NCBI GenBank assembly: GCA_002952755.1
Contig: CP025011.1
Location: 180,001-212,000 of the forward strand
Direction of reading: 5' to 3'
Length of the DNA: 32,000 nt
DNA from: Candidatus Saccharimonadota bacterium
GTDB taxonomy: Bacteria > Patescibacteriota > Saccharimonadia > Saccharimonadales > UBA4665
Shown here: positions 33 through 16,954 of the stretch, one piece after another
Layout of the letters: the number at the start of each line of letters is the position of its first letter
Position numbering within the stretch: the stretch's first letter is position 1
Notes under the pieces: model-generated
The model's input: the letters and a program-made list of their open reading frames with translations, nothing else
Databases searched by the model: none
Told to the model about the DNA's origin: nothing
Position numbers and translations under genes: made by a program

Positions 33-479
33 CTACGATCTTGTTGAGTTGAGTACCTGGCTAGCGTGGGAGATTTTGTTGAGCAAGACTGTGAATTGCT
101 CGATCTCGCCCGCATCCAGATTGGCTGTAAAACCACGCTCATTTTCATCTACCAGATGTTGGTAGATAGCGCTTCGAACCGCTACGCCTTTTGGTGTCAG
201 TTGCAGTACTTTGACGCGTCGATCCTTGGGGTGTGCGGCGCGTACGAGGAGTGCTTTACGCTCGAGTCCGTCAACCAGCCCGGTAACATTCGAGGGGTCA
301 CAGCCGAGCAGCATGCAAAAGTCACTCATAATCTGGTCGTTGTGCTCCTCCATCATCATCAACATAAAAGCTTGCGGGGCAGTAAGGCCGTACTCATTGC
401 CAACCTGGACAACCTGTTGTTTTATCAGGGTCATATAAGCAATGAGTGCTTGGTACAGTGATTGTAATGCTGCAGCCAT
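33..479 (-). CDS. MarR-family transcriptional regulator
   Basis: 148-aa ORF with a MarR-like winged-helix pattern (DPSNVTGLVDGLERKALLVR...DRRVKVLQLTPKG). It is divergent from an MFS efflux gene, the classic MarR/efflux layout. Confidence 0.85.
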   Translation of the reverse strand: MAAALQSLYQALIAYMTLIKQQVVQVGNEYGLTAPQAFMLMMMEEHNDQIMSDFCMLLGCDPSNVTGLVDGLERKALLVRAAHPKDRRVKVLQLTPKGVAVRSAIYQHLVDENERGFTANLDAGEIEQFTVLLNKISHASQVLNSTRS

Positions 480-582: not shown

Positions 583-2028
583 ATGAAAGAGAAAGTAAGA
601 AATCACTGGCTCATTTTGGCCCTACTGGCCTTAGCTCAATTTATGGTGGTGCTTGATGTGTCGATTGTGAATGTCGCCTTGCCAGCCATGCAGCGTACAC
701 TCCATCTCACTCCCACGAACCTCCAATGGGTGATTACCGCATATACGCTTGCTGCCGGAGGCTTCTTGATGCTGGGTGGCCGTGCCGCCGACTTATATGG
801 GCGTCGCCGGATGTTTATGATCGGTATCTTGTGTTTCATCATTGCCAGCCTCGTCGATGGATTGTCGGTAAACGGCGGAATGCTTATCATTCTTCGAGCT
901 GTACAGGGGCTTTCGACTGCCTTTATGTCTCCAGCGGCGCTCTCTATTGTGTTGGTGACATACAAGGAAGGTCATGAACGTAACGTAGCGTTATCGGTCT
1001 GGGGCGCAGTAGCAGCCGGTGGGGCAGCGGTTGGATTATTGCTCGGTGGTTTGCTGACCCAATACCTGAACTGGCGCTGGAATTTCTTCGTAAATGTCCC
1101 CGTTGGATTGCTTGTGATGCTCGGCGTGTATAAGCTTGTTCCGGCACACGAGTCCGAAGAAACGCATAACAGCCTTGATCTGCCTGGCGCACTGACAATT
1201 ACCTCGGGCATGATGCTGATGGTATATGGTTTAGTAAAGGCTCCTAGCTATGGTTGGGCATCGCACACTACCTTGCTGTTCCTGGGCGGCGCAGTGGCAC
1301 TGCTTGCAGCCTTTGTGGTGAACGAACAGCGGGCCAAGCATCCGCTTGTACCACTGTCGATTTTTAAGATTCGTAACGTAACTGGCGCCGATCTCATCCA
1401 GTTGCCTATGACTGCCGCTATGTTCTCGATGTTCTTCTTCACCTCCCTTTATCTGCAGAACGTACTACATTACTCTCCTGTTCGCACAGGCACCAGCTTC
1501 TTGGTCATGCCTGTCGTGCTTGCAGTTGCTGCTACCAACGCACCGCGTTTGGTGAAGCGAGTGGGCTATAAGAGAATTCTGATGACTGCTCCTGTGGTTG
1601 TAGCGGTTGCGCTATTCTGGCTCGGCCATATAACCGTGCAGGGAAACTATCTGCAGCAGGTTCTGCCGCCACTCGTCATAATGGCGATCGGTATGGGTTT
1701 TTCATTCGTGAGCGTTACGATTGCCGCCACCTCGGGCGTACCGGGTAACAAATCTGGCTTGGCTTCGGGCCTGCTTAATACGTCGCAACAAATTGGCGGG
1801 GCACTGGGCCTGGCCATCCTCTCGGGTATCGCGGCTTCTAGCACAACGAAATATCTGACGCATACGGTACATGCCACCCCAGATGCCGCTCTCGTACACG
1901 GCTTCCATCAGGCCTACTTTATAGGCGCAGGTTTTGCCATTGCTGCCGCTGCCATAGCCACGTTTGTTATTAAGCAACAGGCGCCAGGCGCGGAGCCAAT
2001 GCCAGAAATTGCTCCCAGCGCGCATTAG
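583..2028 (+). CDS. MFS transporter, DHA2 (EmrB/QacA-like, 14-TMS) drug:H+ antiporter family
   Basis: 481-aa highly hydrophobic ORF. The N-terminal pattern LDVSIVNVALP...LQWVITAYTLAAGGFLMLGGRAADLYGRRRMF is typical of DHA2 MFS. An SD-like GTGAGGA lies upstream of the ATG. Confidence 0.9.
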   Translation: MKEKVRNHWLILALLALAQFMVVLDVSIVNVALPAMQRTLHLTPTNLQWVITAYTLAAGGFLMLGGRAADLYGRRRMFMIGILCFIIASLVDGLSVNGGMLIILRAVQGLSTAFMSPAALSIVLVTYKEGHERNVALSVWGAVAAGGAAVGLLLGGLLTQYLNWRWNFFVNVPVGLLVMLGVYKLVPAHESEETHNSLDLPGALTITSGMMLMVYGLVKAPSYGWASHTTLLFLGGAVALLAAFVVNEQRAKHPLVPLSIFKIRNVTGADLIQLPMTAAMFSMFFFTSLYLQNVLHYSPVRTGTSFLVMPVVLAVAATNAPRLVKRVGYKRILMTAPVVVAVALFWLGHITVQGNYLQQVLPPLVIMAIGMGFSFVSVTIAATSGVPGNKSGLASGLLNTSQQIGGALGLAILSGIAASSTTKYLTHTVHATPDAALVHGFHQAYFIGAGFAIAAAAIATFVIKQQAPGAEPMPEIAPSAH

Positions 2029-2219: not shown

Positions 2220-2281
2220 CATAAGCTCTATAGCTTAGTTGCGTGCAAAAAAGAAGCGCTCTCTCATGTGTCCAACATCGA

Positions 2282-2327
2282 CACGAGCACTCAGGCTATG
2301 CCCACCCAAAAAGTCTGAGTGCTCGTG
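2282..2327. repeat. 13-bp perfect inverted repeat / hairpin in a non-coding gap
   Basis: CACGAGCACTCAG (2282-2294) pairs with CTGAGTGCTCGTG (2315-2327), with a 20-nt loop. Confidence 0.8.
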
Positions 2328-2618
2328 CCCTTGCTGCGTCACTGAAGAGCTGCAAATCCTGCGCTATTCTTGGCTCGCCCGTAACCCGATTCCTGCTCGA
2401 ACGTGGCGGCGACGTATGTATGTTCAAATGTGCAAAAATACGAACCTCGAATAATCGCACTTTCCATTATTACCCTCAATTATTAAAAAAGTACTAACTG
2501 TAACATATATTCTTATATGTGGTGACACTCTAGGTGGGAGAGTTACCTCTGGCAGATTAAAAGTTAATGACAATTTAATCATCGAGTTGATAAGATTACC
2601 TACGTAACGGTGCAGCAC

Positions 2619-3290
2619 ATGAAAATCCTGTTAATTGAAGATAATCGTTCCCTAGCTGAGAGTCTCAAACGTCAATTGGGCAAGAATTTTATTGTCGAAA
2701 TGGCCAATAGCGGCGAAGAAGGGCTCCAGTTGGCGCTTGCTGGTGGGCAGGATGTGATTATTTTGGATTTATCCCTGCCAGATATGAGCGGGTACGATAT
2801 TTGTCGGACCATCCGTTTGAGTAATGTACATACGCCGGTCCTTATTTTAACCGGCGCGGACGACATCGCCAGTCGCGTAGCCCTACTCAACGCTGGTGCT
2901 GACGACTACGTCACCAAGCCATTCAGCATTGCCGAATTAAAAGCGCGCCTTGGGGCACTGCTCAGACGTGCGCCTGCCGCGTACAGCACCAATATACTTA
3001 CTATTCAGGATCTGGTTATTGATCCTAACCGTCGTCGGGTCGAACGTAGCGGCATTGCCATCGACCTCAGGCGTAAGGAGTTCGATATTTTAGAGTACCT
3101 CGCCCGTAACCGCGGACGTCCGGTTACGCGAGCGATGATTTTGGACCACGCCTGGGACGGCACCAAAGATACCTGGAACAATACAGTAGATGTGCATATC
3201 AAACATCTACGCGATAAAGTTGATCGTCCGTTTGGCGCGCCGCTCATTAAGACGGCATATGGCATCGGCTACATGATTGATGACATGTAG
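2619..3290 (+). CDS. OmpR/PhoB-family DNA-binding response regulator
   Basis: Receiver domain (MKILLIEDN...VIILDLSLPDMSG...TKPF) plus a winged-helix output domain (LRRKEFDILEYL...VDVHIKHLRDKV...YGIGY). ATG 2619 is preferred over the GTG at 2610 given in the ORF track. Confidence 0.92.
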   Translation: MKILLIEDNRSLAESLKRQLGKNFIVEMANSGEEGLQLALAGGQDVIILDLSLPDMSGYDICRTIRLSNVHTPVLILTGADDIASRVALLNAGADDYVTKPFSIAELKARLGALLRRAPAAYSTNILTIQDLVIDPNRRRVERSGIAIDLRRKEFDILEYLARNRGRPVTRAMILDHAWDGTKDTWNNTVDVHIKHLRDKVDRPFGAPLIKTAYGIGYMIDDM

Positions 3291-3318
3291 ATAATGGGGG
3301 AGAAGGGAGGGGATTCTG

Positions 3319-3426
3319 ATGAGCGATATAATGAAGAGTATTCTGACCGACAAGAACGCACGGGATGTGTCAGTGGTAGAGCAGAAATTGATGACGACTG
3401 CTGAAACTGCAACATCTTGGTTCTAG
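3319..3426 (+). CDS. Candidate small ORF (35 aa) between RR and HK: MSDIMKSILTDKNARDVSVVEQKLMTTAETATSWF
   Basis: Hand translation; it is below the 60-aa cutoff of the ORF track. A strong SD, GGGAGGGG (3305-3312), lies 6 nt upstream of ATG 3319. Same strand as the flanking RR and HK genes. Trp is the penultimate residue. Confidence 0.4.
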   Translation: MSDIMKSILTDKNARDVSVVEQKLMTTAETATSWF

Positions 3427-3451
3427 CGGCTGGCGATATGAGTCCCTCATT

Positions 3452-3583
3452 ATGAGAGCACGTTTTGAAGGGCGAGGTGCCGCATGTGCCAAACTGCCTA
3501 CTTACTATACTGGTATACTAAAAGAGATACCACATAGTAACAAGAGAGCGTTTTGGCCATCGGCACCATTTTTATTCGAGTAA
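3452..3583 (+). CDS. Second candidate small ORF (43 aa): MRARFEGRGAACAKLPTYYTGILKEIPHSNKRAFWPSAPFLFE
   Basis: Hand translation. It ends 7 nt before the HK ATG (3591). No recognisable SD, so it is much weaker than the 3319 ORF. Confidence 0.15.
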   Translation: MRARFEGRGAACAKLPTYYTGILKEIPHSNKRAFWPSAPFLFE

Positions 3584-3590
3584 GTTACGA

Positions 3591-4961
3591 ATGCAATTGA
3601 TGATTCGGCGTATCTATAACATATTTATTGCACCCAAGCAACTTAATGAAGATGTACGGAATCGTGAGGTTGTGCTCAATGCGCTCCTTGCGGCATCGTT
3701 ATTGGGGCTGGGTTTGGCTCTTCTATTGTCGCTATTTAGTGTATTCGTTTTACATCACGAGTATGCGCGGGTAGGACTTATCACTATTGGAGTCGCGCTA
3801 ATTTGTGTGGTGGGCCTGTATGGCTTGTCGCGCAGAGGAGGGCGATTTCGTCTAGCCGCCGCCCTTCTTGTTGCCATCTATAGTCTTATTGCAGCTAACC
3901 TTATTTACCGATCCGGTATTACCATTCCGTCAGGCGAATTATTATTTGGTCTCGTGATTGTGCTCGCCGGCATCTTGCTTGGATCGAGTTATTCATTGTA
4001 TGCGGCTACAGGAGCTGGCATATGGGTAATATCTATTCAGGAGGCGACAAGGCAAGGAGCTATACATCCTGATTTGTCGTGGATTAATGTCCAGCCGTCC
4101 TTGGGGGACGCCGCAGGTTTTTGTTTATTGTTTGCTATCATTGCGCTCGTTTCTTGGTTGTTTAATCGACAAATGGAGCAATCGCTTTTTAGGGCGCAGC
4201 GGGCCGAAAAGGCTTTGATGCACCAAAAAGAGATTTTGGAATCAACGGTAGAAGAACGGACGCGCGAGCTACAAGACGCCCAGCTCGAGCGTATGCAACA
4301 GCTCTACCGTTTTGCTGAGCTTGGTCAACTAAGTACAGCGCTCATGCACGAGTTGGCTAATCATCTGACGACGCTCACGCTCGATATCGAAGGACTCGAA
4401 GGCCAAACACGTTCGCGTATGCTCAGCCGCGCCAAGCGCAGCATTCGCTATATCGATACTATGGTGCTTCGGGTGTGCGATCAGCTGCAAGGGCGGAGTA
4501 ATGTAAAGGCGTTCAGCATTGCAACGGAGCTTGATGAGGTGGTGCAAATTTTAAACCACCGGGCGCAAGAGGCTCATGTTCGCCTGCGCTGGCAAGCGCT
4601 TGGGGATCGAAAGGCGCTGCGCTGCTACGGGGAACCTTTCAAGCTTCGACAATTACTGGCGAATCTTATTTCGAATGGCATCGATTCGTATGAAGGTAGC
4701 TTAGAGGAAAAACGTGAAGTGCTCGTGACTGCCCAAGTGATCGATACTGATGTTGAATTGAAAGTGCACGATTGGGGCAAGGGTATCCCTGCAGAAAAAC
4801 GGGCGCAATTATTCGAGCCGCTGTACAGTACCAAGAAGACGGGAATGGGTATGGGGCTGTTTATCGCCAAGCAGATCGTAGAAGAGCATTTTAAAGGCGT
4901 GATTGCCGTTGACGACACCGAAGATCATACCGTTTTCATGGTCAGGCTCAAAAAGGTGTAG
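3591..4961 (+). CDS. Sensor histidine kinase with a polytopic (about 5-6 TM) N-terminal membrane domain
   Basis: The N-terminal 190 aa form hydrophobic helices joined by very short loops. These are followed by a coiled-coil linker, an H-box (LSTALMHELANHL) and HATPase_c motifs (LISNGIDS...HDWGKGIP...GMGMGL). Confidence 0.9.
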   Translation: MQLMIRRIYNIFIAPKQLNEDVRNREVVLNALLAASLLGLGLALLLSLFSVFVLHHEYARVGLITIGVALICVVGLYGLSRRGGRFRLAAALLVAIYSLIAANLIYRSGITIPSGELLFGLVIVLAGILLGSSYSLYAATGAGIWVISIQEATRQGAIHPDLSWINVQPSLGDAAGFCLLFAIIALVSWLFNRQMEQSLFRAQRAEKALMHQKEILESTVEERTRELQDAQLERMQQLYRFAELGQLSTALMHELANHLTTLTLDIEGLEGQTRSRMLSRAKRSIRYIDTMVLRVCDQLQGRSNVKAFSIATELDEVVQILNHRAQEAHVRLRWQALGDRKALRCYGEPFKLRQLLANLISNGIDSYEGSLEEKREVLVTAQVIDTDVELKVHDWGKGIPAEKRAQLFEPLYSTKKTGMGMGLFIAKQIVEEHFKGVIAVDDTEDHTVFMVRLKKV

Positions 4962-4964
4962 GCT

Positions 4965-6911
4965 TTGGGGCAGGCGCAGGACGAGATCGTAAAAAAGGCA
5001 GTAGCTTTTTTAAGCAATGTCCAACAAGCGGATGGCAGATTCCTGAGTTATTCCAGCTCAAAAGAGCGGCCATTTATTGCCGAAAAAACATACTGCACGA
5101 CGTTCGGCCCTTCGCTCATACTGGCGGCCTTAGCTGGGGCGTCCAAAGCGTCCGCCATTTGCGCCAGACTCGCCTTATGGCTTGCCGATCAACGTAGCGA
5201 CGGCTGGTCGTTTAATTATTGGGCGCACGCTGCGCCAGAGCGCCAGACGCTACCTTATCCAGACGATCTGGATGATACCTTTTGCGCGCTTATCGCGTTG
5301 CACAGGCAGGAGCCGGACCGTACTAATGAAGCTGTGTTAGGCTGCGTGGTACGCCTACTGGTAGCGGCAGAGAGCAGGGTTGGCGGGCCGTATGAAACAT
5401 GGCTTGTACCCAAAGAAGCCAAAAGGGTGTGGCACGATGTGGACCTAGCAGTTAATAGCAATATTGCCTATTTTTTGGGATTAGTCGGCACCAGACTACC
5501 TCAGGTAGACGCCTTATTGCAGACGGCGGTTATCTCTGGTATGTTCGCTTCTCCTTACTATCCCTCTGAGTACTCAATTCTATACTATGTATCGCGGGCA
5601 TACGCCGGACCAGACAAAACGCGACTCATTGCTCATATTTTAGCTAAGAGACAGAATGGACATTGGCCCTCGGTGTTAGCTACCGCGCTCTCGATAACTT
5701 CGTTGCACGCCTTAGGTAGTGTTGACGCACAAAGTGAGGCACGACAGTATTTGTGCGATATGCAATTACCCGATGGATCCTGGCCGGCCGAGGCATTTTG
5801 CCTGGATCCTTCTCGAAAAGGTCAGGCATACTTTAGCGGTTCGTCAGCCCTTACGACTGCTTTGGTTCTAGAAGCGCTTACACACAGTACAACACCGGAG
5901 CCTGCCAGGGTGTCGGCTGTTGAAGCTATGCCGGATACTCATGAGGCACAACTGATAGAGCGTATCGCTGTTGCCGCAGAACAGAGCTGTGCTGCATTCG
6001 ATCCAGAGTTGCGCTATGCCACCATCCGACACCTGCGCGCAATACAAAAGAGCAAGCATAGCCGCGAAATCACTCTATTACCGTATTTATTTGCCCGATC
6101 ACTTACGGAACCGCCATCATTTTCTGATGATGTATTAGTACGACTAGGGCTCGCCAATCTGTATGGATGGCTCGCCTATACAATCTTTGATGATTTTTTG
6201 GATGATGAAGGTCGTCCTCAAGATGTGCCAGTTGCTTGTGCTGCGCTCCGTCAGTCGCTGCATTTATTTGAAGATGCGCTGCCGGATGCCTCGTTTCGTA
6301 AGTATGCTCGACAAACATTCGACCATATTGATGCTGCCAATGCCTGGGAGGCCGCTCATTGCCGGTTCCAAGTCGATACTCAACACATCACCATTGCCAA
6401 ACTCCCTAGTTATCACCGCTCGAACCACCTCTATCAGCGTTCGCTTGGTCATACACTAACACCGCTGGCAGTGTTGGTTGCCCAAGGGTATTCGCTCGAC
6501 GAACCTGCGGTTATTGCCTGCAAGCAGGCCTTGCAGCATTATCTAGCTGCCCGTCAGCTTAACGACGACCTGCATGACTGGGAAGAGGATGTATCCCGCG
6601 GGCATAGTAGCTATGTAGTAACGGCAATTCTGGCTAATTTACATATACCCCTTGGAAAACAGCCTCTAAAGTCGCTCGTTGCCCGGATGCGCCGTCAGTT
6701 TTGGCACCATACGCTGCTTGCAGTTTGTGAGGATGCCGATCGTCACATCCGTTTAGCTCGTCGCTATCTGAAGCAAAGTAATTTACTGCAAGATGAGAAT
6801 AGTGTTACTGGACTGCTTGACGGGCTTGACGCCAGTGTCGCCCGCACTCGATCCGAGCAAAGCAAGGCAGAGGCATTTCTGGCTGCCTATCAGGGAGAAA
6901 ATAAGTCTTAG
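4965..6911 (+). CDS. Two-domain terpenoid-enzyme-like protein: N-terminal cyclase/prenyltransferase-like alpha/alpha toroid plus C-terminal isoprenoid-synthase-like helical domain
   Basis: TTG start 3 nt after the HK stop, with AAGGTG upstream. N-terminal half: four QW-like repeats (KAVAFLSNVQQADGRF, ARLALWLADQRSDGW, IAHILAKRQNGHW, ARQYLCDMQLPDGSW) and DDLDDT (nt 5262-5279), which resembles the class II cyclase DxDDTA motif. C-terminal half: FDDFLDDE (nt 6189-6209) and QLNDDLHDWEED (nt 6561-6590), i.e. a DDxxD motif plus a second Asp-rich / NSE-like motif 125 aa apart. Confidence 0.6.
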   Translation: MGQAQDEIVKKAVAFLSNVQQADGRFLSYSSSKERPFIAEKTYCTTFGPSLILAALAGASKASAICARLALWLADQRSDGWSFNYWAHAAPERQTLPYPDDLDDTFCALIALHRQEPDRTNEAVLGCVVRLLVAAESRVGGPYETWLVPKEAKRVWHDVDLAVNSNIAYFLGLVGTRLPQVDALLQTAVISGMFASPYYPSEYSILYYVSRAYAGPDKTRLIAHILAKRQNGHWPSVLATALSITSLHALGSVDAQSEARQYLCDMQLPDGSWPAEAFCLDPSRKGQAYFSGSSALTTALVLEALTHSTTPEPARVSAVEAMPDTHEAQLIERIAVAAEQSCAAFDPELRYATIRHLRAIQKSKHSREITLLPYLFARSLTEPPSFSDDVLVRLGLANLYGWLAYTIFDDFLDDEGRPQDVPVACAALRQSLHLFEDALPDASFRKYARQTFDHIDAANAWEAAHCRFQVDTQHITIAKLPSYHRSNHLYQRSLGHTLTPLAVLVAQGYSLDEPAVIACKQALQHYLAARQLNDDLHDWEEDVSRGHSSYVVTAILANLHIPLGKQPLKSLVARMRRQFWHHTLLAVCEDADRHIRLARRYLKQSNLLQDENSVTGLLDGLDASVARTRSEQSKAEAFLAAYQGENKS

Positions 6912-8389
6912 GAATGTACGATCACTGGCGTGCCGATCGGCGCCCATGCGTATAGCCAGGCACTATCGTCTACCGGAATACCGACACAGCCGTGCGAGCT
7001 ATTGACCAAGCCAAAATAACTGGCCGGCCGCCAGTAGTTACCGTGAATTGCATAGTCGGCATAGAAGTAATTGACGTACGGAACATGCGGCTGAAAATAA
7101 CGCGAGCCGTCGACATTCTCGCCAAACATATCCTGGCTGACATATTTGGCATAGATAGCGAAGCGACCGAGGATGGTGGGCGTGGCTGGTGCGCCGGCGG
7201 TGACAGAGTAGTTGCGAACCAGCTCACCTTGGTCATAGGCGTATAACTGTTTGGTAGCCACGTTCACTTCAATCCATTTGCCAGTCGTTGGTGCGGTAAT
7301 GGTGCGGAAAGGGGTTGCCGTTGTAGTGAGCGCGAGATCCTGGCTGGTGTGATTGAGTAAGTTACTGCTCAGTGTGTCTGCTGTATTCTGGGTATTACTA
7401 ACTTGCAAGCCCTGCTGTCCTTCAGACAGAATCTCGCCTGATACATCTAAAATCTGCGGCTTGGCAGGCTGTGTATATGACGACGCAAGGGCGTCGAAAT
7501 ATCTTCGCACTTGGTTGTTATCTATCCCGATGGCCACGCCGGCTGCATTGTCGTTAGTGAGTGTCAGCCATCCACCAATGTCCACCGCGCTGGGTGTAAT
7601 TACCTGGCCGGCGATATGTATAGTAATTTTTTGTCGTAGTATCGCTGTCAACTTTGCTTGGACGGGCAGGAGCTTTTGCATGGTAATCGTGGGCGCCAGA
7701 GCGATGGGTTGCATGGTAACCGGCTTAGTTTGCATCTGTTGGGCTGCCTCCAGAATAGTCTGGTCCGCATCAGCTGGACCGTATGCTTTGCCAGGCATCT
7801 CGGCATCCAGAGAAGCTACTCCATTGGTGATGTGAAGAGACGCGTCGTGTGGAGGTACGGTCACAATGGTCGCGTCACGACTGGTGAATTGGCTAAGGGT
7901 GCTGCTGTGTATGACTCCCAATATAGTTATATGCACCGGCTGCCACCATGCGAAGCGATGGCGCCAGCTGTGCTGATTTTTGTGGAGCGCCTGCAAGCTA
8001 CGTGCAATATCGGGCTGCAGGCCGATTGCCGCTAGCGGAAACGCTTTCGTCGAATGGTTTGGGTATGCGATGGACAAGCGGTAGTTAGCACTAGCCTGCT
8101 GGACATCTCTTTGGAGTGCCGTATTGGTTATATGTCCGGAGAATATTTGGTCGCCAATAGCAATGCGAGTATAGAGTAGGTTGCCCGCAACCCAGGTTAG
8201 CCCAACGATACTCAAGGTAATGCCCGTAGCTATAGCGGCTGGTCGCCATCGATGCGAGTGGCCATGGCTCCCAGGCGTCACAGAGGGATTCTTTTCACGC
8301 CCACTTCCGGTTGATTCCGATGGCGAATCATTAGCAACAACTATCTTAGCTGAGCCTCGGGTGCTTTTATCCTGTTTTTTCTTTTTCAA
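6908..8389 (-). CDS. Membrane-anchored L,D-transpeptidase (YkuD domain)
   Basis: N-terminal Lys-rich tail and one TM helix. C-terminal YkuD-like catalytic region (AIHGNYW...NSSHGCVGIPVDDSAWLY). Its stop codon overlaps the stop of the convergent gene (TTAG). Confidence 0.8.
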   Translation of the reverse strand: MKKKKQDKSTRGSAKIVVANDSPSESTGSGREKNPSVTPGSHGHSHRWRPAAIATGITLSIVGLTWVAGNLLYTRIAIGDQIFSGHITNTALQRDVQQASANYRLSIAYPNHSTKAFPLAAIGLQPDIARSLQALHKNQHSWRHRFAWWQPVHITILGVIHSSTLSQFTSRDATIVTVPPHDASLHITNGVASLDAEMPGKAYGPADADQTILEAAQQMQTKPVTMQPIALAPTITMQKLLPVQAKLTAILRQKITIHIAGQVITPSAVDIGGWLTLTNDNAAGVAIGIDNNQVRRYFDALASSYTQPAKPQILDVSGEILSEGQQGLQVSNTQNTADTLSSNLLNHTSQDLALTTTATPFRTITAPTTGKWIEVNVATKQLYAYDQGELVRNYSVTAGAPATPTILGRFAIYAKYVSQDMFGENVDGSRYFQPHVPYVNYFYADYAIHGNYWRPASYFGLVNSSHGCVGIPVDDSAWLYAWAPIGTPVIVHS

Positions 8390-8757: not shown

Positions 8758-8834
8758 GCGCCCGTAGCTCAGTGGATTAGAGTACTTGGCTTCGAACCAA
8801 GGGGTCGCAGGTTCGAATCCTGCCGGGCGTACCA
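8758..8834 (+). tRNA. tRNA-Arg (anticodon TCG), CCA encoded
   Basis: Manual cloverleaf. Acceptor stem GCGCCCG / CGGGCGT, D-arm GCTC-AGTGGATT-AGAG region, anticodon stem CTTGG / CCAAG with loop CTTCGAA, T-arm GCAGG-TTCGAAT-CCTGC, discriminator A, then CCA. Confidence 0.9.
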
Positions 8835-8989: not shown

Positions 8990-10390
8990 TCACTCCTGCA
9001 CATGCATTGAATCATAGAGCGTAAGCAAAATGCTGGCGAGTTGGCCTCGGATAAGTTGCTGTGGCTTAACGAGCTTCGGGGCGGCTATCTGCTCGATCTT
9101 CGTTGCATTATCGTGAATGATGGCATGTAGCTCATCCGCTACGGCTCTGTTTTTAGTGTGCACAGCGAGACGATGTGTCATGCCAATAGCCACACTTCCA
9201 TAGAAAAAGCTTGTTAGTGCAGTGTTTATCAGCACAGCGCGGGACACCTCTCTTTTACTCATCGCCTCCCTTGACTTGAGAGGTAGTATGCTTTCCCATG
9301 TCTTTGCTAGGGGCAGTGCTTGATCTGCGATTAATTGATGTGACGGGTCGAGCGATGAGAGATCGAGTTTATCCCAATAGTCTAACGTGCGTCTTATGTT
9401 GTATAGACTTTCTCTCAGCATATCACTGAGTGTTTTTCTTGACTCACCTGGCATATGATCGACTGCGCTGATCTGCGGGACGGCGAAGTGTGCGGCTTCA
9501 AGCATAACGCCCCTTACCCGTTTGTTAGCCTCCTCGCCGATTTTTTGCGCGTAGCCGATTGACTGGCGTCCCGGCGGGCTCATAGCGGAGGCTTTACTCT
9601 CTCCATACTGCTCGGCATTGTAGTCGTACCATTCTTCAAATGTAGGCAGTTGGTATACACCTTTTGTAAGTTCACGCGCCATTGGCAAGTCGCCCGTGCC
9701 CGAGAGTGGCAGGTCAGGGGCTACTATCAGCAATGAGTTTTTGAGCGACCGCGCGAGAGCGAACGATGTCCCGCTTACGTACGCAGCCTGCCCACCTATG
9801 GAGGCGTTGTGTCCAGAGAAGACTACGTCCGGAAGTCGGTGAGCAATAATATCCATGCTCGCTCGTGTCGCGGGAAGCGGATGGTTCTGAGCCGCTTCCC
9901 TATACTCTACGGGATAAGTGTGATCTACCACTTGGTCACTACGGAATGTACCTAAGAGGCAATCCTCGATTGAGGGATTAGGTAAACCAGTCCAGGTATT
10001 CAATTGGGAAGTGGCAGGATGAGCGTCGAAGAAGCTAATCGCACTGCAGCCGAGTTGTTGCAATAACCGTGTGGTCGTTGCAACGCGAAGTAATTCTTGG
10101 GCTGTATTGACGGCCACCTTCTCATTTTCGTCAACATTCATTTTTACATATAAAACGCCATCACCCTTGGGGTCAGGAAGTTCTATAGTGCAGGATTCAA
10201 AATTTTTTGTGCTACCGTCAAGATCGGTATATGTATGATCAGTAGGCTCGACAGAGAGCACAGCGCCCTCTTCTCCTGGATCTTGACCCTTGAACCACTC
10301 TGAAAATCCTCCTAACTCGTAGTGAGGGTAGTCAGGAACACTCATCACTGCCTCCGCAATGCGGGGAATATCCGCTCCATGATTTGTCAT
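8990..10390 (-). CDS. Hypothetical protein (466 aa), no recognisable family
   Basis: Long uninterrupted ORF with protein-like composition. No signal peptide or TM helix, and no motif I can assign. Confidence 0.6.
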   Translation of the reverse strand: MTNHGADIPRIAEAVMSVPDYPHYELGGFSEWFKGQDPGEEGAVLSVEPTDHTYTDLDGSTKNFESCTIELPDPKGDGVLYVKMNVDENEKVAVNTAQELLRVATTTRLLQQLGCSAISFFDAHPATSQLNTWTGLPNPSIEDCLLGTFRSDQVVDHTYPVEYREAAQNHPLPATRASMDIIAHRLPDVVFSGHNASIGGQAAYVSGTSFALARSLKNSLLIVAPDLPLSGTGDLPMARELTKGVYQLPTFEEWYDYNAEQYGESKASAMSPPGRQSIGYAQKIGEEANKRVRGVMLEAAHFAVPQISAVDHMPGESRKTLSDMLRESLYNIRRTLDYWDKLDLSSLDPSHQLIADQALPLAKTWESILPLKSREAMSKREVSRAVLINTALTSFFYGSVAIGMTHRLAVHTKNRAVADELHAIIHDNATKIEQIAAPKLVKPQQLIRGQLASILLTLYDSMHVQE

Positions 10391-10579
10391 GCGGGCACTG
10401 TAGCAATTTTCTTGTTTAGTAACAAGCTGGCTAAGAAAGAGGGGGGGTTCGGCAGGAGGTATAGCAGGCTTTTTGATTTACTCAAGGGCAAGGCAACCGC
10501 TGCTATAACGAATCACGATTTTTACCGAAGCTGTTCGGTAATTGGGGAGGATGGTCGAGCCATTTGCTATACTCGACAT

Positions 10580-11592
<1,013 letters not shown>

Positions 11593-13758: not shown

Positions 13759-15474
13759 ATGACACAAAAAGCGCGGACTCGATTCTGGGATACGCTTACG
13801 CATAGCCGTTTATCGCCAGACACTGGGCCCTACGGCCAAGCTTATGTCATCAATATGTACAGCTTGCTGGCTTTTTTGTCGCTTACGATTTTTGGCATAT
13901 TACATCTGACCGCCGATCATACACCGCGGATTGGCTATTTAGAGCTCGGCTGCGCTGCAGTTATGTTGCTGAATATCGGGTTGCTATATGCAAGTCAGGA
14001 TCTGGTAGTAGGCCGCACCATTTTATTGTCTACTATTATGGCCGGGTTAGTTGTGATGTTAGGGACGGGTGGCACCCAGGGTACGGGTATTTTTTGGTTT
14101 TTTGTATTTCCGGTGGGTGCCTTTTTTGTAGCGGGGAAGAAACAGGGTATGCGCTGGGTGATAGCCCTCTTTTTGGTAGTGCTCGCATTACTTGGGTTGG
14201 CGCAAGCCGATGTGGTCAATTTGTTTTATTCATTTATAACTATCAGGCAGTTGCTGGTGAGCCTAGCAGTGGTTGCAGCCGGGATATATGTATATGAGCG
14301 TTCGAGGGAGCAGCTCGAGCAACAGACACGCACCGACGAGCACGATTTACGCGAAGAGAAGGTTCTTGCTGGAACGATCTTAGAGAATATCGATGAGGGC
14401 GTCGTAGCTATAAACAAGCAAGGGCGGGTAATACTAATGAATCAGCCGGCCGAGCAAATGCTCGGTTGGAGCCGCGACGATTTGATGGGCAAGAAGTTCG
14501 TTGAGATGGTGCCATTGATTGATCATAAAGGTAAGCGGGTGAAATCAACCGACCGTCCGATACATCGGGCGTTGGAAGGCCCTATCGGTAATTTGTCGCT
14601 AACCTATGTGCGTAAGGATGGTAGCAAATTCCCGGTGGTTATGTCTGGCAGGTCAATTATGGTAGATGGTAAAGTGCAGGGCGCGATTGGTACGTTTCGC
14701 GATGTGACCGAGGAGCGGAATATTGACCGGGCCAAGACTGAATTTGTGACGCTAGCCTCACACCAGTTGCGGACGCCGCTATCGGCTATCGCCTGGTTTA
14801 GCGAGATGTTGTTGAATGGTGATGTGGGTAAACTGAGCGACGCCCAGCGCGAGCCGATCGAGCAGATTTATCACAGTAATCAACGTTCGGCAGCGATCGT
14901 TGACGCCATGCTGACCGTCTCCAACGTTGAGCTTGACAAGGTGACGGTGAGCCCTGAGGTTGTTGATCTCCCCGCACTCTGCCATAAGGTGCTGAATGAA
15001 GTGGGAAGTGCATTGCTGAGTGAAAAAGAGCTGCACATTCGTGAAGAGTACGCCCCTGACCTGTCGAACCTAAAGCTCGACCCTGCTCTTACGAAAACAA
15101 TGCTTCAAATTATTATCTCCAACGCGCTAAAATATACGCCAAACGGTGGTTCTGTAACGATTAAGATTCTAAAAAGCGCCGAAAAGCTTTCGCTTTCCAG
15201 TCGGGGTAGTGTGCGGATAGATGTGACCGACACTGGATATGGCGTCCCAAAAGCTGAACACAAGAAAATCTTTGAAAAACTCTTCAGGGGTACTAATATA
15301 AGATCAAAAGATACTGATGGGACAGGGTTGGGATTGTACATTGTGAAATCACTTTTGGAACAAGCGGGCGGGGTCATTCGATTTACATCTGAAGAAGATA
15401 AGGGCAGTACTTTTTCTATTGTGCTGCCCCTGGAAGGCATGAAGCGCAAAGGGCCGGGTACGGCTCATGTTTAG
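13759..15474 (+). CDS. PAS-domain sensor histidine kinase (membrane-bound)
   Basis: About 5 N-terminal TM helices, a PAS region (ILENIDEGVVAINKQGRVILMNQPAEQMLGW...), an H-box (LASHQLRTPLSAI) and HATPase_c motifs (ISNALKYTP...DTGYGVP...GTGLGLYIV). Confidence 0.92.
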   Translation: MTQKARTRFWDTLTHSRLSPDTGPYGQAYVINMYSLLAFLSLTIFGILHLTADHTPRIGYLELGCAAVMLLNIGLLYASQDLVVGRTILLSTIMAGLVVMLGTGGTQGTGIFWFFVFPVGAFFVAGKKQGMRWVIALFLVVLALLGLAQADVVNLFYSFITIRQLLVSLAVVAAGIYVYERSREQLEQQTRTDEHDLREEKVLAGTILENIDEGVVAINKQGRVILMNQPAEQMLGWSRDDLMGKKFVEMVPLIDHKGKRVKSTDRPIHRALEGPIGNLSLTYVRKDGSKFPVVMSGRSIMVDGKVQGAIGTFRDVTEERNIDRAKTEFVTLASHQLRTPLSAIAWFSEMLLNGDVGKLSDAQREPIEQIYHSNQRSAAIVDAMLTVSNVELDKVTVSPEVVDLPALCHKVLNEVGSALLSEKELHIREEYAPDLSNLKLDPALTKTMLQIIISNALKYTPNGGSVTIKILKSAEKLSLSSRGSVRIDVTDTGYGVPKAEHKKIFEKLFRGTNIRSKDTDGTGLGLYIVKSLLEQAGGVIRFTSEEDKGSTFSIVLPLEGMKRKGPGTAHV

Positions 15475-16954
15475 AAAAATGTCGCTGCAAGCCAAGATGA
15501 TATTCGCGTTTCTATCGTTAACGCTGCTCGTTGATGCCGGCAGCTACTATTTAATCCTCGTTTTGGATCACAGCAATAACCTCACATTGACAGCAGACCA
15601 TCTGACAGTATCGATAGCTACGTTTGCGGTTTTGGTCTCAGCTTTTGCGGTAGCGCTAGGGACATTTCTGGCAATTTGGCTTGGACGATCCATCTCAAAG
15701 CTGAAGGGTGGCGCCGAGCGGATCGCGGATGGAGACTTTTCGCGTCCAATTCCAGTGAATTCCGAGGATGATTTTGGCAAATTAGCACTGGCTTTTAACG
15801 CAATGGCGGAGCGTCACAAGGATGCCTATCGCCGCCTGGCTGTCGAGAGACAACGCGACGAGGCAATACTTCAGAGCATGAGTGAAGGTTTGCTAGCGGT
15901 AGACGAAAACGGAACAGTGGTGTTGGCCAACGATGTGGCGGTCGCCTTACTTGACCTCGAGAGTCAAGAAGCAGCAATTGGCAAAGACAGCAAAACTATT
16001 CTCAAACTCTATTCACAAAATGTGCAGGAAACCAAACCATTACCGCTCAAAGAACAGCCTGTGCATAGTGCGCTCTCTACCGGGCGTGCCGTCAGCGATA
16101 TATTCGCATTCCATAAAGTTAGCGGCGAGAAATTTCTGCTGAATGTGAGCGCCAATCCGATCCGCCTCGACGAAAAAACAATCGGAGCTATTTTAGTAGT
16201 CCGCGATGTGACGAAAGAGCGGGAAATAGACCGTATGAAAACCGAGTTCATCTCGCTCGCCTCACACCAATTGCGGACGCCGCTATCGGCCATTAAATGG
16301 TTTAGCGAGATGCTGCTCTCTGGCGACGCCGGTAAGCTCAAAGGCGATCAGGTTGATTTTGCACAGAATATTGCCGACTCTACTCAGCGTATGATCGAGT
16401 TGGTCAATTCATTGCTCAATATTTCACGTATCGAATCGGGCCGGATTATGGTAACGCCACAGCCGACCGACCTGAAGGAACTTGTGTCGGGTATTGTGAG
16501 CGACCTCAAGGGCAAAACTGAGCAGAAAAAGCAGTCGCTAGTGATTAGTGTCCATCAGGATTTGCCAAAGATTAAGCTCGATCCGCGCCTGATTGGCCAG
16601 GTGTACCTCAATCTATTGACCAATGCCATTAAATACACTCCCAAAGGCGGCGAGATCTCGGTATTTATCTCCCGTAAGGGCGACCAAGTAATTTCGCAGG
16701 TAACAGACAATGGGTACGGCATACCAAAAGATCAGCAGGACCGCGTGTTCCAGAAGTTCTTCCGTGCAGCTAATGCAGTAAAGGTGGAGACAGACGGCAC
16801 GGGCCTCGGGTTGTATCTTATTAAGGCGGTTATCGAATCGTCGGGCGGTAAGATATGGTTTGAGAGTGAGGAGGGGAAGGGAACGACATTTTGGTTTAGT
16901 ATTCCGATGAGTGGCATGAAGGCCAAGAAAGGTGAGGTGACGCTCGATGCATAG
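15467..16954 (+). CDS. HAMP/PAS sensor histidine kinase, paralog of the upstream HK
   Basis: Its start overlaps the upstream stop by 8 nt. Two TM helices, a HAMP-like region (IADGDFSRPIPVNSEDDFGKLALAFNAMAE), a PAS domain, the same H-box (LASHQLRTPLSAI) and HATPase_c motifs. Confidence 0.92.
   Translation: MFRKMSLQAKMIFAFLSLTLLVDAGSYYLILVLDHSNNLTLTADHLTVSIATFAVLVSAFAVALGTFLAIWLGRSISKLKGGAERIADGDFSRPIPVNSEDDFGKLALAFNAMAERHKDAYRRLAVERQRDEAILQSMSEGLLAVDENGTVVLANDVAVALLDLESQEAAIGKDSKTILKLYSQNVQETKPLPLKEQPVHSALSTGRAVSDIFAFHKVSGEKFLLNVSANPIRLDEKTIGAILVVRDVTKEREIDRMKTEFISLASHQLRTPLSAIKWFSEMLLSGDAGKLKGDQVDFAQNIADSTQRMIELVNSLLNISRIESGRIMVTPQPTDLKELVSGIVSDLKGKTEQKKQSLVISVHQDLPKIKLDPRLIGQVYLNLLTNAIKYTPKGGEISVFISRKGDQVISQVTDNGYGIPKDQQDRVFQKFFRAANAVKVETDGTGLGLYLIKAVIESSGGKIWFESEEGKGTTFWFSIPMSGMKAKKGEVTLDA

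Follow-up and report, generated by a model that had tools for sequence, protein, structure and literature searches.

The window analysed here, a 32-kb stretch of DNA from a tiny-genome Saccharimonadia/CPR bacterium (Patescibacteria), carries an operon that probably constitutes an autoinducing signalling module, in which a Trp-prenylated and prenyl-cyclised peptide would be sensed by a membrane kinase. Its four ORFs, all on the plus strand, encode an OmpR-type response regulator (RR), a 35-aa peptide, a histidine kinase (HK) with six transmembrane (TM) segments, and a 648-aa enzyme, and the system is best described as a combination of ComQXPA-type signalling with the prenyltransferase-cyclase maturases of RiPPs. 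Isoprenylated-peptide signalling was the bolder reading of the first-pass annotation of this DNA, and it is supported computationally by the fold of the enzyme halves as well as by the synteny of the small ORF. If correct, it implies a widespread, undescribed form of cell-to-cell signalling in a poorly understood bacterial group.

Operon organization and distribution

The coordinates and shared strand given in the first-pass annotation were verified for all four ORFs (Table 1), as was the start of the 648-aa protein, a TTG at 4965, 3 nt past the HK stop. Median intergenic spacings of 32 nt (RR to peptide), 65 nt (peptide to HK), and -4 nt (HK to enzyme) indicate tight coupling of the genes.

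Table 1. Features of the operon and its upstream region; coordinates are positions within the 32-kb window.
Feature	Position	Strand	Basis
Conserved hairpin RNA, 3' of the divergent box	2258..2344	-	RNAalifold; covariance model
Second box CAGTTAGTACTTTTTTAATAATTGAGGGTAATAATG	2465..2500	-	PWM 16.1 bits
Promoter box AAGTTAATGACAATTTAATCATCGAGTTGATAAGAT, putative RR binding site	2561..2596	+	Motif in 38/46 loci; promoter scan
RR, OmpR/PhoB family, 223 aa	2619..3290	+	Response_reg E 4e-26, Trans_reg_C E 1e-22
Putative precursor peptide gene, 35 aa	3319..3426	+	Conserved family; coding signature; profile searches
Long imperfect hairpin (3476-3567) then AUUUUUAUU, peptide-HK gap	3476..3576	+	Folding energy vs shuffles
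Sensor HK, 456 aa	3591..4961	+	HATPase_c E 7e-18; hydropathy; conserved boxes
N-terminal enzyme domain (aa 1-308), monodomain class II terpene cyclase	4965..5888	+	PDB profile, Foldseek, AF2
C-terminal enzyme domain (aa 325-648), trans-isoprenyl-diphosphate-synthase (IDS)-like prenyltransferase	5937..6911	+	Foldseek; invariant residues

The module was found repeatedly across Patescibacteria. The enzyme alone occurs in 251 species genomes, and its family comprises 1,382 clusters of 50% identity at E<=1e-30; among the best 150 of these clusters nearly all are full-length with an identical domain order, and five are shorter and apparently truncated. The RR gene lies upstream of the small ORF and the HK gene in most loci, and the HK gene lies directly 5' of the enzyme gene in about 76 of 80. 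Since the small ORF was detected in 76 of the 77 loci that cover the region, and flanking genes are conserved only among the nearest relatives, the peptide belongs with the module rather than with the neighbourhood. No exporter or leader peptidase conserved with the module was found among the neighbouring genes of the loci, genes for immunity, ABC transporters, or further tailoring are not among its conserved neighbours, and isoprenoid-precursor genes are absent from the 32-kb window.

Among close relatives, a divergence gradient runs from the RR (0.80) through the HK core (0.66), the leader (0.64), and the cyclase domain (0.59) to the TM domain of the HK (0.55), the prenyltransferase (PT) domain (0.51), and the residue after the Trp (0.30). 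At the sequence level the fastest-evolving parts are those that would form the signal, its maker, and its sensor, as in the comQ/comX/comP pherotypes.

Two-component system and regulatory elements

The earlier assignment of the RR to the OmpR type holds, because both a Response_reg and a Trans_reg_C domain were matched. The HK, which had been described as having five to six TM helices joined by minimal loops, shows six hydrophobic segments with short loops by hydropathy (residues about 25-56, 57-82, 84-108, 108-132, 132-155, and 169-194), followed by a coiled coil, the H-box (H253), and the ATPase domain; N, G1, and G2 boxes are present.

A direct repeat, TTTAAT-N5-TTTAAT, is located 5' of the RR gene in 38 of 46 loci, at 41-70 nt from the RR start apart from one site at 171 nt, which suggests autoregulation, with the repeat as the putative target of the operon's own OmpR-type RR. 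In the window, the TTAAT half-sites (2564-2568 and 2575-2579, 11 bp apart) overlap a -35-like ATGACA that is followed downstream by a -10-like TAAGAT, and a promoter scan predicted ATGACA-18-TAAGAT at 2567-2596. Scanning 1.07 Mb with the PWM yielded 88 matches, 47 of them within 300 nt 5' of RR genes. The second box lies 60 nt from the first, the pair forming predicted back-to-back divergent promoters, and comparable minus-strand PWM matches are present 100-180 nt 5' of the RR gene in loci L001, L003, L005, L013, L019, L023, and L034. In other clades the same box is found 5' of a Crp/Fnr-like regulator gene or of the enzyme gene.

The hairpin RNA beyond the divergent box has a core stem (2327-2315 / 2294-2282) closed by the loop UUUUUGGGUGGGCAUAG, and RNAalifold analysis of 12 loci gave 18 pairs, 14 with compensatory changes. 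The minus strand is favoured because G-U pairs far outnumber A-C pairs, and covariance-model scores are 22-52 bits higher on this strand. The model produced one match per locus in 13 loci (the window, the training loci, and L014), always divergent from the operon and 5' of the RR gene, and no match outside these loci in 826 kb; sites located by regular expression lie 172-324 nt 5' of the RR gene. No Rfam family matches this RNA and no conserved ORF was found in its region, and it is a candidate RR-controlled small RNA specific to the clade of the window. Finally, the fold of 3424-3595, between the peptide and HK genes, has an energy of -56.2 kcal/mol (z = -4.06), a stability reached by 0 of 200 shuffles. 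This hairpin is lineage-specific, since hairpin plus U-run occur in only 19 of 73 loci, and may act as a leaky terminator or as an attenuator, keeping the ratio of peptide to enzyme high.

Putative precursor peptide

The small ORF encodes MSDIMKSILTDKNARDVSVVEQKLMTTAETATSWF, with the leader MSDIMKSILTDKNAR... and its sole Trp, W34, in ...ATSWF; the strong Shine-Dalgarno sequence that had been claimed for it was identified as GGGAGGGG, 7 nt upstream. A small-ORF profile, scanned over 26,092 six-frame segments from 86 loci, matched 76 loci, each of them once (E 3e-19 to 3e-5), with 74 of the matches on the operon strand, 1.37-1.65 kb 5' of the enzyme gene. The other two, in L072 and L078, lie about 350 nt 5' of the enzyme gene on the strand opposite to the operon; there the peptide gene and the kinase gene, which codes for the same TM domain, have the reverse orientation to the enzyme gene, yet are still adjacent. 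The synteny check proposed earlier, for a small ORF with a C-terminal Trp between RR and HK, thus found it conserved in essentially every locus covering the region.

The family comprises 70 distinct sequences of 34-41 aa, in which M1, L9, R15, and the Trp are invariant, with exactly one Trp in 68, a Pro before it in 58, and 1-7 residues after it. The leader pattern phi-phi-x-x-phi-L-T-D-x-x-x-R is conserved, and the Trp is the sole invariant residue of the C-terminal part. TGG encodes it in 75 of 75 loci, and the synonymous share of single-nucleotide codon differences is 56% in frame versus 23% and 10% in the other frames, a clear coding signature judged from codon comparison. An independent peptide profile searched against 5.8e9 proteins returned 104 matches, all of 32-58 aa and all unnamed; each of the 28 that were retrieved has a Trp near the C-terminus.

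Outside Saccharimonadia, the N-terminus of many peptides is Lys-rich and followed by a hydrophobic stretch of 15-18 residues that precedes Pro-Trp. In the Microgenomates-type peptides the hydrophobic middle may form a membrane helix, a feature that would suit a cell-bound signal better than a diffusible one. The modified peptide might stay terpenoid-anchored in the producer membrane and modulate the polytopic kinase in cis, with the helix adding anchoring in some lineages; what it reports might be the pool size of prenyl diphosphates or lipid carriers and not cell density. The lack of a conserved exporter or protease and the near absence of extracytoplasmic loops from the kinase are in line with such a role. 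It is nonetheless unlikely, since the peptides of Saccharimonadia, including that of the window, are amphipathic and charged and not membrane-spanning, the fast divergence of peptide C-terminus, PT domain, and sensor TM domain is the pattern of specificity-diversifying pheromone systems, and ComX likewise has no dedicated exporter.

As episymbionts, these organisms interact with the membranes of their hosts, and many members of the family have cationic amphipathic leaders (e.g., KKLIKKILT), as might be expected if the product were primarily a bioactive RiPP, e.g., an antimicrobial or host-directed lipopeptide, with the two-component system providing autoinduction or immunity, as NisRK does for nisin, rather than quorum sensing as such. 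The known prenyltransferase-cyclase maturases ChrPC and NctPC also stem from natural-product clusters (PMC13290415). A primarily bioactive product is improbable, however, as the immunity, transport, and tailoring genes are not conserved nearby, and each peptide is strictly paired with one sensor and one enzyme, which together with the putative autoregulatory box is how a signalling module is laid out.

Enzyme

The AF2 model of the enzyme, which ends at 6911, is confident (pLDDT 92.6) and has two domains, and the fold check that had been proposed for each half returned, by profile and Foldseek, a class II terpene cyclase N-terminally and a trans-IDS fold C-terminally. The cyclase profile matched the cyclase domain of bacterial drimenol synthase in the PDB (E 1.4e-15), aligning PDDLDDT on its catalytic PDDLDTT and the catalytic Asp on its D333, and Foldseek matched this half to SHC-like monodomain cyclases and drimenol synthase (8pak, 9mhs, 9m7d; E 6e-10 to 4e-9). 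Foldseek matches of the C-terminal half were GGPPS (5jfq; E 1.5e-4, TM score 0.66-0.71), FPPS, and HEPS2, as well as the free-Trp farnesyltransferase Ord1 (9v4i; E 1.4e-3). The DxDD motif (D101-L-D103-D104-T105) is coded at 5265-5279, the FARM (D409-D410-F-L-D413) at 6189-6209, and Q531 with the SARM (D534-D535-L-H-D538) at 6555-6590.

Among 46 homologues, YPDDLDDT (D101, D103, D104, T105), DDFLDDE (D409, D410, D413), and QLNDDLHDWEED (Q531, D534, D535, D538, D542) are invariant or nearly so. DLDDT, DDFLDDE, and NDDLHDWEE had all been quoted correctly, and the reported QW repeats amount to one canonical (Q267-G271-W273) and one degenerate (Q20...F26) motif. NDDLHDWEE is the SARM (DDxxD), the second Asp-rich motif of the IDS-like domain, and was rejected as an NSE/DTE motif of class I. 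Canonical trans-IDS enzymes need an invariant Lys and an RRG for IPP binding (regions I-VII), and the invariant residues of the C-terminal domain include no Lys and no RRG after the FARM. The Pfam model polyprenyl_synt did not match the enzyme even at E<=10.

PalQ has the pattern FARM D89/D93, Q197, and SARM D200/D204 (PMC10853753), with which the invariant FARM, Q531, and SARM residues agree. IDS-like enzymes with this signature prenylate a peptide Trp, and fused prenyltransferase-cyclase enzymes subsequently cyclise the prenyl group (PMC13290415 sections 2.3-2.4; PMC10853753; bioRxiv 10.64898/2026.08.29.745113). As the domain keeps a full DDxxD SARM and its closest structures are chain-elongating synthases, elongation activity is possible.

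The two-component system could alternatively control a bifunctional terpenoid synthase, the IDS-like domain condensing IPP and DMAPP to FPP or GGPP, which the class II domain would cyclise, e.g., to drimenyl or copalyl diphosphate, so that the product is a free cyclic terpenoid and the small ORF chemically unrelated. Although GGPPS and FPPS are the closest structures, both Asp-rich motifs are complete and invariant, and the nearest relatives of the cyclase domain (drimenol and drimenyl-diphosphate synthases) use free FPP, this is very unlikely given the invariant-Trp small ORF that accompanies the enzyme and stays adjacent even when inverted, the missing Lys and RRG, the failure of the Pfam model, and the agreement of the Q-x-x-D signature with the Trp-recognising residues of PalQ (PMC10853753).

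Proposed mechanism

For the signalling module, the following steps are those that we infer, including prenyl chain length, reaction order, secretion, and ligand identity. The 35-aa ORF would be the ribosomal precursor, docking on the maturase through its conserved N-terminal leader and modified at the single Trp of the Pro-Trp motif, 1-7 residues from the C-terminus. The C-terminal domain would use its Asp-rich motif and Mg2+ to ionise an allylic prenyl diphosphate whose chain is probably C15 or C20, and would attach that chain to the indole in the manner of ComQ, PalQ, and the P domain of ChrPC. In the N-terminal class II cyclase, the DxDD acid D103 would then protonate the distal double bond, converting the peptide-bound chain into a mono- or polycyclic terpenoid. 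The lipophilic product would be exported, possibly with removal of the leader, and sensed in the membrane by the six-TM HK, which would phosphorylate the RR; the kinase ligand could also be something other than the peptide. Binding of the RR to TTTAAT-N5-TTTAAT at its own promoter would establish positive feedback, and in the clade of the window the RR may also act at the divergent promoter to drive the structured small RNA.

Comparison with known systems

The module resembles ComQXPA in its parts: the small precursor has a Trp close to its C-terminus, the enzyme is of the trans-IDS superfamily and has a FARM, and the kinase is polytopic and has a cognate regulator. All are encoded on one strand, and signal, maker, and sensor TM domain diverge fastest. 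It differs in its OmpR-type rather than NarL-type regulator, its gene order (A-X-P-Q instead of Q-X-P-A), its host (Patescibacteria instead of Bacillota), and its enzyme, to which a class II cyclase domain is fused and whose SARM is complete where ComQ has a pseudo-SARM (NDxxx). The earlier statement that the parts are not obviously homologous to ComQXPA needs qualifying for the enzyme: no sequence-level match with ComQ was detected, but ComQ belongs to the trans-IDS superfamily (review PMC13290415; bioRxiv 10.64898/2026.08.29.745113), at which level the two are distantly related.

The likeness to staphylococcal agr (P2 agrBDCA / P3 RNAIII) is one of layout only, i.e., back-to-back divergent promoters with direct-repeat boxes, of which, in the clade of the window, one would drive an autoinducing-peptide operon and the other a structured RNA. 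AgrB, a thiolactone, and a LytTR regulator are absent here, and the RNA is a single long predicted hairpin in only 13 loci.

Monodomain class II cyclases (the AsDMS cyclase domain, 9mhs and 9m7d; small SHC-like cyclases, 8pak and 8paj; MstE) resemble the N-terminal domain in their alpha/alpha-barrel fold and DxDD/DxDTT acid motif, and they likewise have a QW motif and a cavity rich in aromatic residues. Sequence identity is about 21%, they use free FPP or meroterpenoid substrates, and AsDMS is fused to a HAD phosphatase rather than to an IDS-like transferase.

The PalP-PalX-PalQ cluster of Paenibacillus alvei (PMC10853753) likewise groups a histidine kinase, a precursor, and an IDS-like Trp prenyltransferase, and PalQ shares the FARM, the Gln that precedes the SARM by three residues, and the DxxxD form of the SARM. 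The NHLP-type leader of PalX is about 70 aa and its Trp strictly C-terminal, whereas the present leaders, a new family, are about 25-30 aa and 1-7 residues follow the Trp; PalQ lacks a cyclase domain, and no regulator gene is reported for that cluster.

The inferred chemistry resembles that of ChrPC and NctPC (Hubrich et al. 2024, Chem 10:3224), which, as far as the review PMC13290415 describes them, combine in one polypeptide a Trp prenyltransferase (IDS-like in ChrPC) and a monodomain MstE-like class II cyclase, and prenylate an internal Trp of a ribosomal peptide before cyclising the prenyl group. The present enzyme, with the cyclase N-terminal and the transferase C-terminal, belongs to a Patescibacteria-wide family, has a precursor of 34-41 aa, and, unlike ChrPC and NctPC, is encoded among the genes of a two-component system whose promoter carries a putative autoregulatory box. 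The system had been called undescribed; since fused Trp maturases of this kind are already known, its chemistry is not categorically new, and it is the coupling to a two-component system, in Patescibacteria, that appears new.

Gene organization and distribution of the module

The four same-strand ORFs listed in the first-pass annotation are all present as stated (see the table). Domain profiles revealed a receiver plus winged-helix architecture of the OmpR/PhoB type for the regulator (RR), and its Trans_reg_C output domain bears out the earlier statement that it is OmpR-type and not NarL-type. The histidine kinase (HK), whose closest matches are AtoS/NtrB-like, contains six hydrophobic segments with very short loops, in agreement with the sensor of 5-6 transmembrane (TM) helices and minimal loops that had been proposed, and the gene order, i.e., regulator, peptide, kinase, enzyme, is indeed unlike that of ComQXPA.

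Homologues of the enzyme are abundant in Candidatus Saccharimonadales and other Patescibacteria; all are about 640-670 aa in length and almost all are unnamed. An exhaustive profile search yielded 1,382 clusters (50% identity) at E<=1e-30, and in the best 150 of these the two-domain order is unchanged and nearly all sequences are full-length. A relative was encountered in 251 of the 185,579 species genomes scanned, and all 251 are attributable to Patescibacteria except for a few oddly labelled MAGs. The latter carry the labels Bacillota, Dormiibacterota, Methylomirabilota, Gammaproteobacteria, Vitreimonas or Sulfotelmatobacter (loci L006, L015, L048, L051, L053, L063 and L079), and are probably mis-binned or mislabelled contigs, because their loci resemble those of Patescibacteria.

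Eighty loci were fetched from the 251-genome set. With few exceptions the kinase gene lies directly upstream of the enzyme gene, and in most loci with enough sequence the regulator gene precedes the kinase gene. Median spacings in 47 complete, non-redundant loci are 32 nt from regulator to peptide, 65 nt from peptide to kinase, and -4 nt from kinase to enzyme. In two loci of other genomes, L072 (3213-4927) and L078 (about 1947-2069), the peptide gene and the kinase gene are located on the strand opposite to the enzyme and are still adjacent; their kinase has a TM sensor domain that can be aligned with those of the module kinases and a more divergent HisKA core, and no OmpR-type regulator gene adjoins them. 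A PAS kinase and two single-domain receivers, similar to the window set at 13759-17820, are found 3' of the L072 enzyme gene, and an unrelated MFS gene is located near this module.

The MFS transporter, MarR and YkuD genes of the window were rejected as module members, since conservation of these genes is limited to the closest relatives; MarR and MFS are kept upstream of the module only in L003/L006 and L020. The flanking genes being common only to the nearest relatives, the four genes constitute the conserved unit, and the window MFS protein is possibly an exporter outside this unit. The papain-family (C1) cysteine peptidase, which is near the module only in the window and in L041 (62% identical copy, about 2 kb 3' of the module), could possibly act as leader peptidase. 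The split epimerase-like ORFs probably reflect a frameshift, a pseudogene or an assembly error. The 466-aa ORF, the only one searched among those without a Pfam match, has no counterpart in related loci, and no isoprenoid-pathway genes were found within the 32-kb window.

Features of the module and its surroundings, in window coordinates unless a locus of another genome is named
Feature	Position	Strand	Remarks
MarR regulator	33-479	-	Divergent, directly upstream of module
MFS transporter	583-2028	+	Directly upstream of module
Hairpin RNA	2344 to 2258	-	Downstream of second box; conserved loop UUUGGGUGGGCAUAG
Second box	2465-2500	-	60 nt from first; in the window's clade
Promoter box	2561-2596		Two TTAAT half-sites 11 bp apart, then -10-like hexamer; agrees with promoter-scan prediction
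Response regulator	2619-3290	+	Response_reg and Trans_reg_C domains
Small ORF, 35 aa	3319-3426	+	Preceded by GGGAGGGG
Long hairpin followed by U-run	3476-3576		Between peptide and kinase genes; z = -4.06
Histidine kinase	3591-4961	+	HATPase_c; H-box H253; N/G1/G2 boxes
Enzyme, 648 aa	4965-6911	+	TTG start, 3 nt past kinase stop
YkuD L,D-transpeptidase	6908-8389	-	Convergent on enzyme; 4-nt overlap with enzyme stop
tRNA-Arg(TCG)	8758-8834	+
UDP-glucose-4-epimerase-like gene, split	10322-11017 and 10900-11592		N- and C-terminal halves of Epimerase family
PAS histidine kinase, MASE6-PAS-HisKA	13759-15474		First of tandem
PAS histidine kinase, HAMP-PAS-HisKA	15467-16954		Second of tandem
Single-domain receivers	17021-17455; 17455-17820		3' of tandem PAS kinases
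ECF-type sigma factor	20395-20916	-
C1 cysteine peptidase (papain family)	25005-25808; L041 9001-9792
Sortase	27104-27766	-
ORFs of 307-539 aa without Pfam match	8990-10390 (-); 17930-19060 (+); 19478-20440 (-); 27829-29448 (+); 31015-31938 (-)
Crp/Fnr-like genes	L015 1925-2599; L021 1875-2555; L022 1960-2628; L037 2053-2751; L038 2003-2701; L039 1966-2673

A class II cyclase fused to a prenyltransferase-like domain

Pfam and NCBIfam produced only weak squalene-hopene-cyclase repeat matches at the N-terminus of the enzyme, and for its C-terminal half no Pfam match even at E<=10 and no significant NCBIfam match. The AlphaFold2 model (pLDDT 92.6, pTM 0.83) displays two domains separated by a disordered linker (residues 311-320). 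The first-pass annotation had noted isoprenoid-enzyme motifs and a cyclase-like extra domain in this protein, and had suggested profile and structure searches of each half. The N-terminal half was identified as a class II cyclase by PDB-sequence profile and Foldseek, and the C-terminal half as a trans-isoprenyl diphosphate synthase (IDS) fold by Foldseek, while the DLDDT and DDFLDDE motifs proved to be invariant or nearly so among 46 aligned sequences (Y98-P99-D101-(L)-D103-D104-T105, D409-D410-x-x-D413 and Q531-x-x-D534-D535-x-x-D538). The model, the PDB profile and Foldseek thus place a monodomain class II cyclase and a prenyltransferase-like domain in a single polypeptide.

Residues 26-309 match the class II cyclase domain of drimenol synthase (E 1.4e-15, profile search of PDB sequences), the PDDLDDT of the enzyme being aligned on the PDDLDTT of the bacterial drimenol synthase AsDMS, and D103 on AsDMS D333, the residue substituted in a D333N mutant entry. 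Foldseek retrieved the monodomain SHC-like cyclases 8pak/8paj and drimenol synthases for this domain (E 6e-10 to 4e-9). The DxDD acid motif (D101-L-D103-D104-T105), an alpha/alpha barrel and a QW motif, of which Q267/G271/W273 are invariant in the 46 sequences, are all present, as in class II cyclases.

The C-terminal domain was assigned to the all-alpha trans-IDS fold on basis of the AlphaFold2 model and Foldseek, which matched it with GGPPS 5jfq (E 1.5e-4, TM 0.66-0.71), as well as with FPPS and HEPS2, and with Ord1 9v4i (E 1.4e-3, TM 0.61), an all-helical farnesyltransferase of free tryptophan. Pfam polyprenyl_synt was not detected in this domain at E<=10. Of the first Asp-rich motif (FARM, DDxxD), all 46 sequences retain D409 and D413, and conservation of D410 reaches at least 90%. 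Canonical chain-elongating trans-IDS enzymes bind IPP via the region I K/R, the RRG after the FARM, the KT and the region VI K. By these motif definitions, the IPP-binding basic residues are missing from the enzyme: residues 325-648 contain no invariant Lys among the 46 sequences, and the sole invariant Arg is R429, 16 residues past D413. The FQxxDD pattern is also found in canonical IDS enzymes, and the upstream Gln alone is not discriminating. Q531 is invariant and precedes D534 by three residues, a spacing identical to that of Q197/D200 in PalQ, the Trp prenyltransferase of Paenibacillus alvei (PMC10853753; PMC13290415). N533-D534 lies within a complete DDxxD, where the pseudo-SARM of ComQ (IPR033965), i.e., its second Asp-rich motif, reads NDxxx. 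The NDDLHDWEE stretch was rejected as a class I NSE/DTE motif, since His occupies position 5 and position 9 varies (N533-...-H537-...-x541); the enzyme does not conform to a bifunctional class II/class I terpene synthase, as the triad (N/D)Dxx(S/T/G)xxxE is not found in it, and no class I terpene synthases are among the top 50 Foldseek matches of the model.

A conserved precursor-like peptide

An ORF of 34-39 aa is located between regulator and kinase in three distant loci (enzymes 47-53% identical), as established by gene callers or translation, and the three products share their N-terminus and a Trp near the end. A peptide profile run over 26,092 six-frame segments from 86 loci gave a single match per locus in 76 of the 86; 74 of these 76 share the strand of the operon and lie 1.37-1.65 kb 5' of the enzyme, and those of L072 and L078 are on the opposite strand. 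In the nine loci lacking a match the contigs end before the expected position, and L059 has a weak match only. Syntenic conservation of a small ORF with a near-C-terminal Trp, which had been put forward as a check on the module, was accordingly observed in 76 of the 77 loci that include the region.

The 70 distinct peptides measure 34-41 aa, with M1, L9, R15 and the Trp invariant, a Pro before the Trp in 58/70, exactly one Trp in 68/70, and 1-7 variable residues after it. At the DNA level, entropy is greatest at the third codon position, the synonymous share of single-nucleotide codon differences is 56% in frame versus 23% and 10% in the other frames, and the Trp codon is TGG in 75/75 loci. 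A profile of 47 peptides retrieved 104 called proteins of 32-58 aa from 5.8 billion proteins (best E 1e-11), all unnamed, with the same architecture in 28/28 retrieved; no Pfam or NCBIfam model covers the peptide or the transferase domain. The small ORF is real and part of the module. Some variants were encountered: the peptides of L053 and L055 have a Cys-Cys tail after the Trp (PWECC, PWCC), the Trp is the last residue of the database peptide P0227 (...VYAAW), and in many Microgenomates-type peptides the N-terminus is rich in Lys and the middle is hydrophobic and resembles a helix.

Divergence was compared between loci whose regulators are at least 75% identical. In these close pairs identity averages 0.80 for the regulator, 0.66 for the kinase core, 0.64 for the peptide leader, 0.59 for the cyclase domain, 0.55 for the kinase TM domain, 0.54 for the peptide middle, 0.51 for the transferase domain, and 0.30 for the residue after the Trp. 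Divergence is fastest in the variable end of the signal, in its presumed binding domain, and in the sensor domain. The same fast-divergence pattern is known for comQ/comX/comP pherotypes, and the gradient is suggestive of pherotype-like specificity.

Regulatory DNA and RNA

In 38/46 loci a direct repeat (TTTAAT-N5-TTTAAT, the box) precedes the regulator start by 41-70 nt (171 nt at one site). Of the 88 PWM matches in 1.07 Mb scanned, 47 lie within the 300 nt 5' of regulator genes, which represents a strong enrichment. Such a geometry would suit an OmpR/PhoB-type regulator that controls the operon encoding it, which points to autoregulation. The box also precedes the enzyme gene itself in three loci and, in six loci, a gene directly upstream of the module encoding a Crp/Fnr-like regulator (222-235 aa; family called by eye from sequence), which, being preceded by the box, is a candidate second-tier output. 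Minus-strand box matches within the extreme 3' part of the enzyme gene in L009, L025, L028 and L032 have no ORF behind them, and are treated as unexplained or AT-rich noise.

The hairpin RNA that follows the second box was located by regular expression and covariance model; its loop length varies, so that a fixed-spacing DNA pattern matched nothing. Compensatory changes were observed in 14/18 pairs, and the large excess of G-U over A-C pairs assigns the hairpin to the minus strand. With the covariance model, 13 related loci each yielded a single copy, oriented divergently from the operon in every case, and there were no further matches in 826 kb. The hairpin RNA contains no conserved ORF, and Rfam has no family for it or near the module, giving only chance miRNA-like hairpin matches. 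It may be a small RNA controlled by the regulator. The layout of divergent boxes and hairpin RNA recalls the staphylococcal agr P2/P3-RNAIII. A terminator after the peptide gene was rejected as a general feature, since it occurs in only 19/73 loci and is lineage-specific; the hairpin between the peptide and kinase genes of the window was not flagged by a simple terminator scan.

Proposed mechanism and implications

We consider it a real possibility, still short of probable, that many Patescibacteria run a quorum-sensing-type circuit based on a ribosomal-peptide pheromone with a Trp-borne, cyclised terpenoid (drimane- or labdane-like), one cyclase-prenyltransferase fusion and a 6-TM kinase, with an agr/RNAIII-like small-RNA output in one Saccharimonadia clade. 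The maturase would bind the precursor peptide via its leader, the IDS-like domain would prenylate the peptide Trp, and the class II domain would cyclise the peptide-bound prenyl chain. The lipophilic product would be sensed in the membrane by the kinase, and the regulator would then activate its own operon and lineage-specific outputs. Prenylation before cyclisation is considered the more likely order, since a drimenyl-type diphosphate would have lost its allylic character on cyclisation, and since ChrPC, a prenyltransferase-cyclase RiPP maturase, works in that sequence (PMC13290415).

It is plausible that the product is instead a lipopeptide that stays cell-bound and acts on the kinase in cis, above all in lineages whose peptides have a hydrophobic middle, and a bioactive RiPP with nisin-like autoinduction is possible. 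A free-terpenoid synthase under two-component control would agree with the complete SARM and with the best structural matches being true synthases, but is disfavoured by the obligatory presence of the peptide with the enzyme and by the missing IPP-binding residues.

Patescibacteria represent a large share of bacterial diversity, and CPR bacteria have long been viewed as metabolically minimal episymbionts. To our knowledge, almost nothing is known of how Patescibacteria perceive one another or their hosts, and the literature searched describes no peptide pheromone system for them. The pheromone circuit, if true, would be the first CPR peptide pheromone system and the first case in which a polycyclic-isoprenoid peptide has a native role in signalling. 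It would carry Trp-prenyl pheromones (ComX) into a new phylum, and provide the prenyl-cyclising RiPP maturases, which were discovered recently, with a physiological role. Moreover, the module is compact and occurs widely, with 1,382 protein clusters, 251 species genomes and no fewer than 104 called peptides, and its natural enzyme-peptide pairs would form a large library for cyclic-terpenoid peptide lipidation. Finally, the conserved promoter box offers a candidate regulon, with the hairpin RNA as a candidate output, and the two together could reveal collective behaviour of Patescibacteria carrying the module.

Comparison with known systems

In the literature searched no description was found of an OmpR-type two-component operon that encodes a cyclase-transferase fusion and combines it with a precursor family not known before, an autoregulatory box that is conserved, and Patescibacteria-wide spread. 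The genome mining of Hubrich et al. may already list these homologues. The window operon differs from ComQXPA in the strict sense, which has a NarL/LuxR-type ComA, a ComP-type kinase and the order Q-X-P-A. ComQ, PalQ and the P domain of ChrPC are grouped in a 2026 review as trans-IDS-like prenyltransferases that target a peptide tryptophan and carry, shortly before the second Asp-rich motif, a common Gln (PMC13290415), which is proposed to bind the indole NH (PMC10853753; PMC13290415). With this class and Ord1 the window enzyme shares fold, FARM, upstream Gln and an adjacent Trp precursor peptide. ComQ has a FARM and the pseudo-SARM NDxxx (bioRxiv 10.64898/2026.08.29.745113), and the active site of PalQ, whose cluster also encodes a histidine kinase, consists of FARM D89/D93, Q197 and SARM D200/D204 (PMC10853753), a pattern reproduced by D409/D413, Q531 and D534/D538 of the window enzyme. 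According to the review, ChrPC and NctPC are prenyltransferases fused to an MstE-like monodomain class II cyclase, in which the Trp is prenylated first (C10-C20) and the prenyl group is then cyclised (PMC13290415, on Hubrich et al. 2024); the window enzyme has a comparable fusion of transferase-like domain and class II cyclase. The proposed chemistry is precedented by ComQ, PalQ and ChrPC, and the signalling logic by ComQXPA and PalPXQ.
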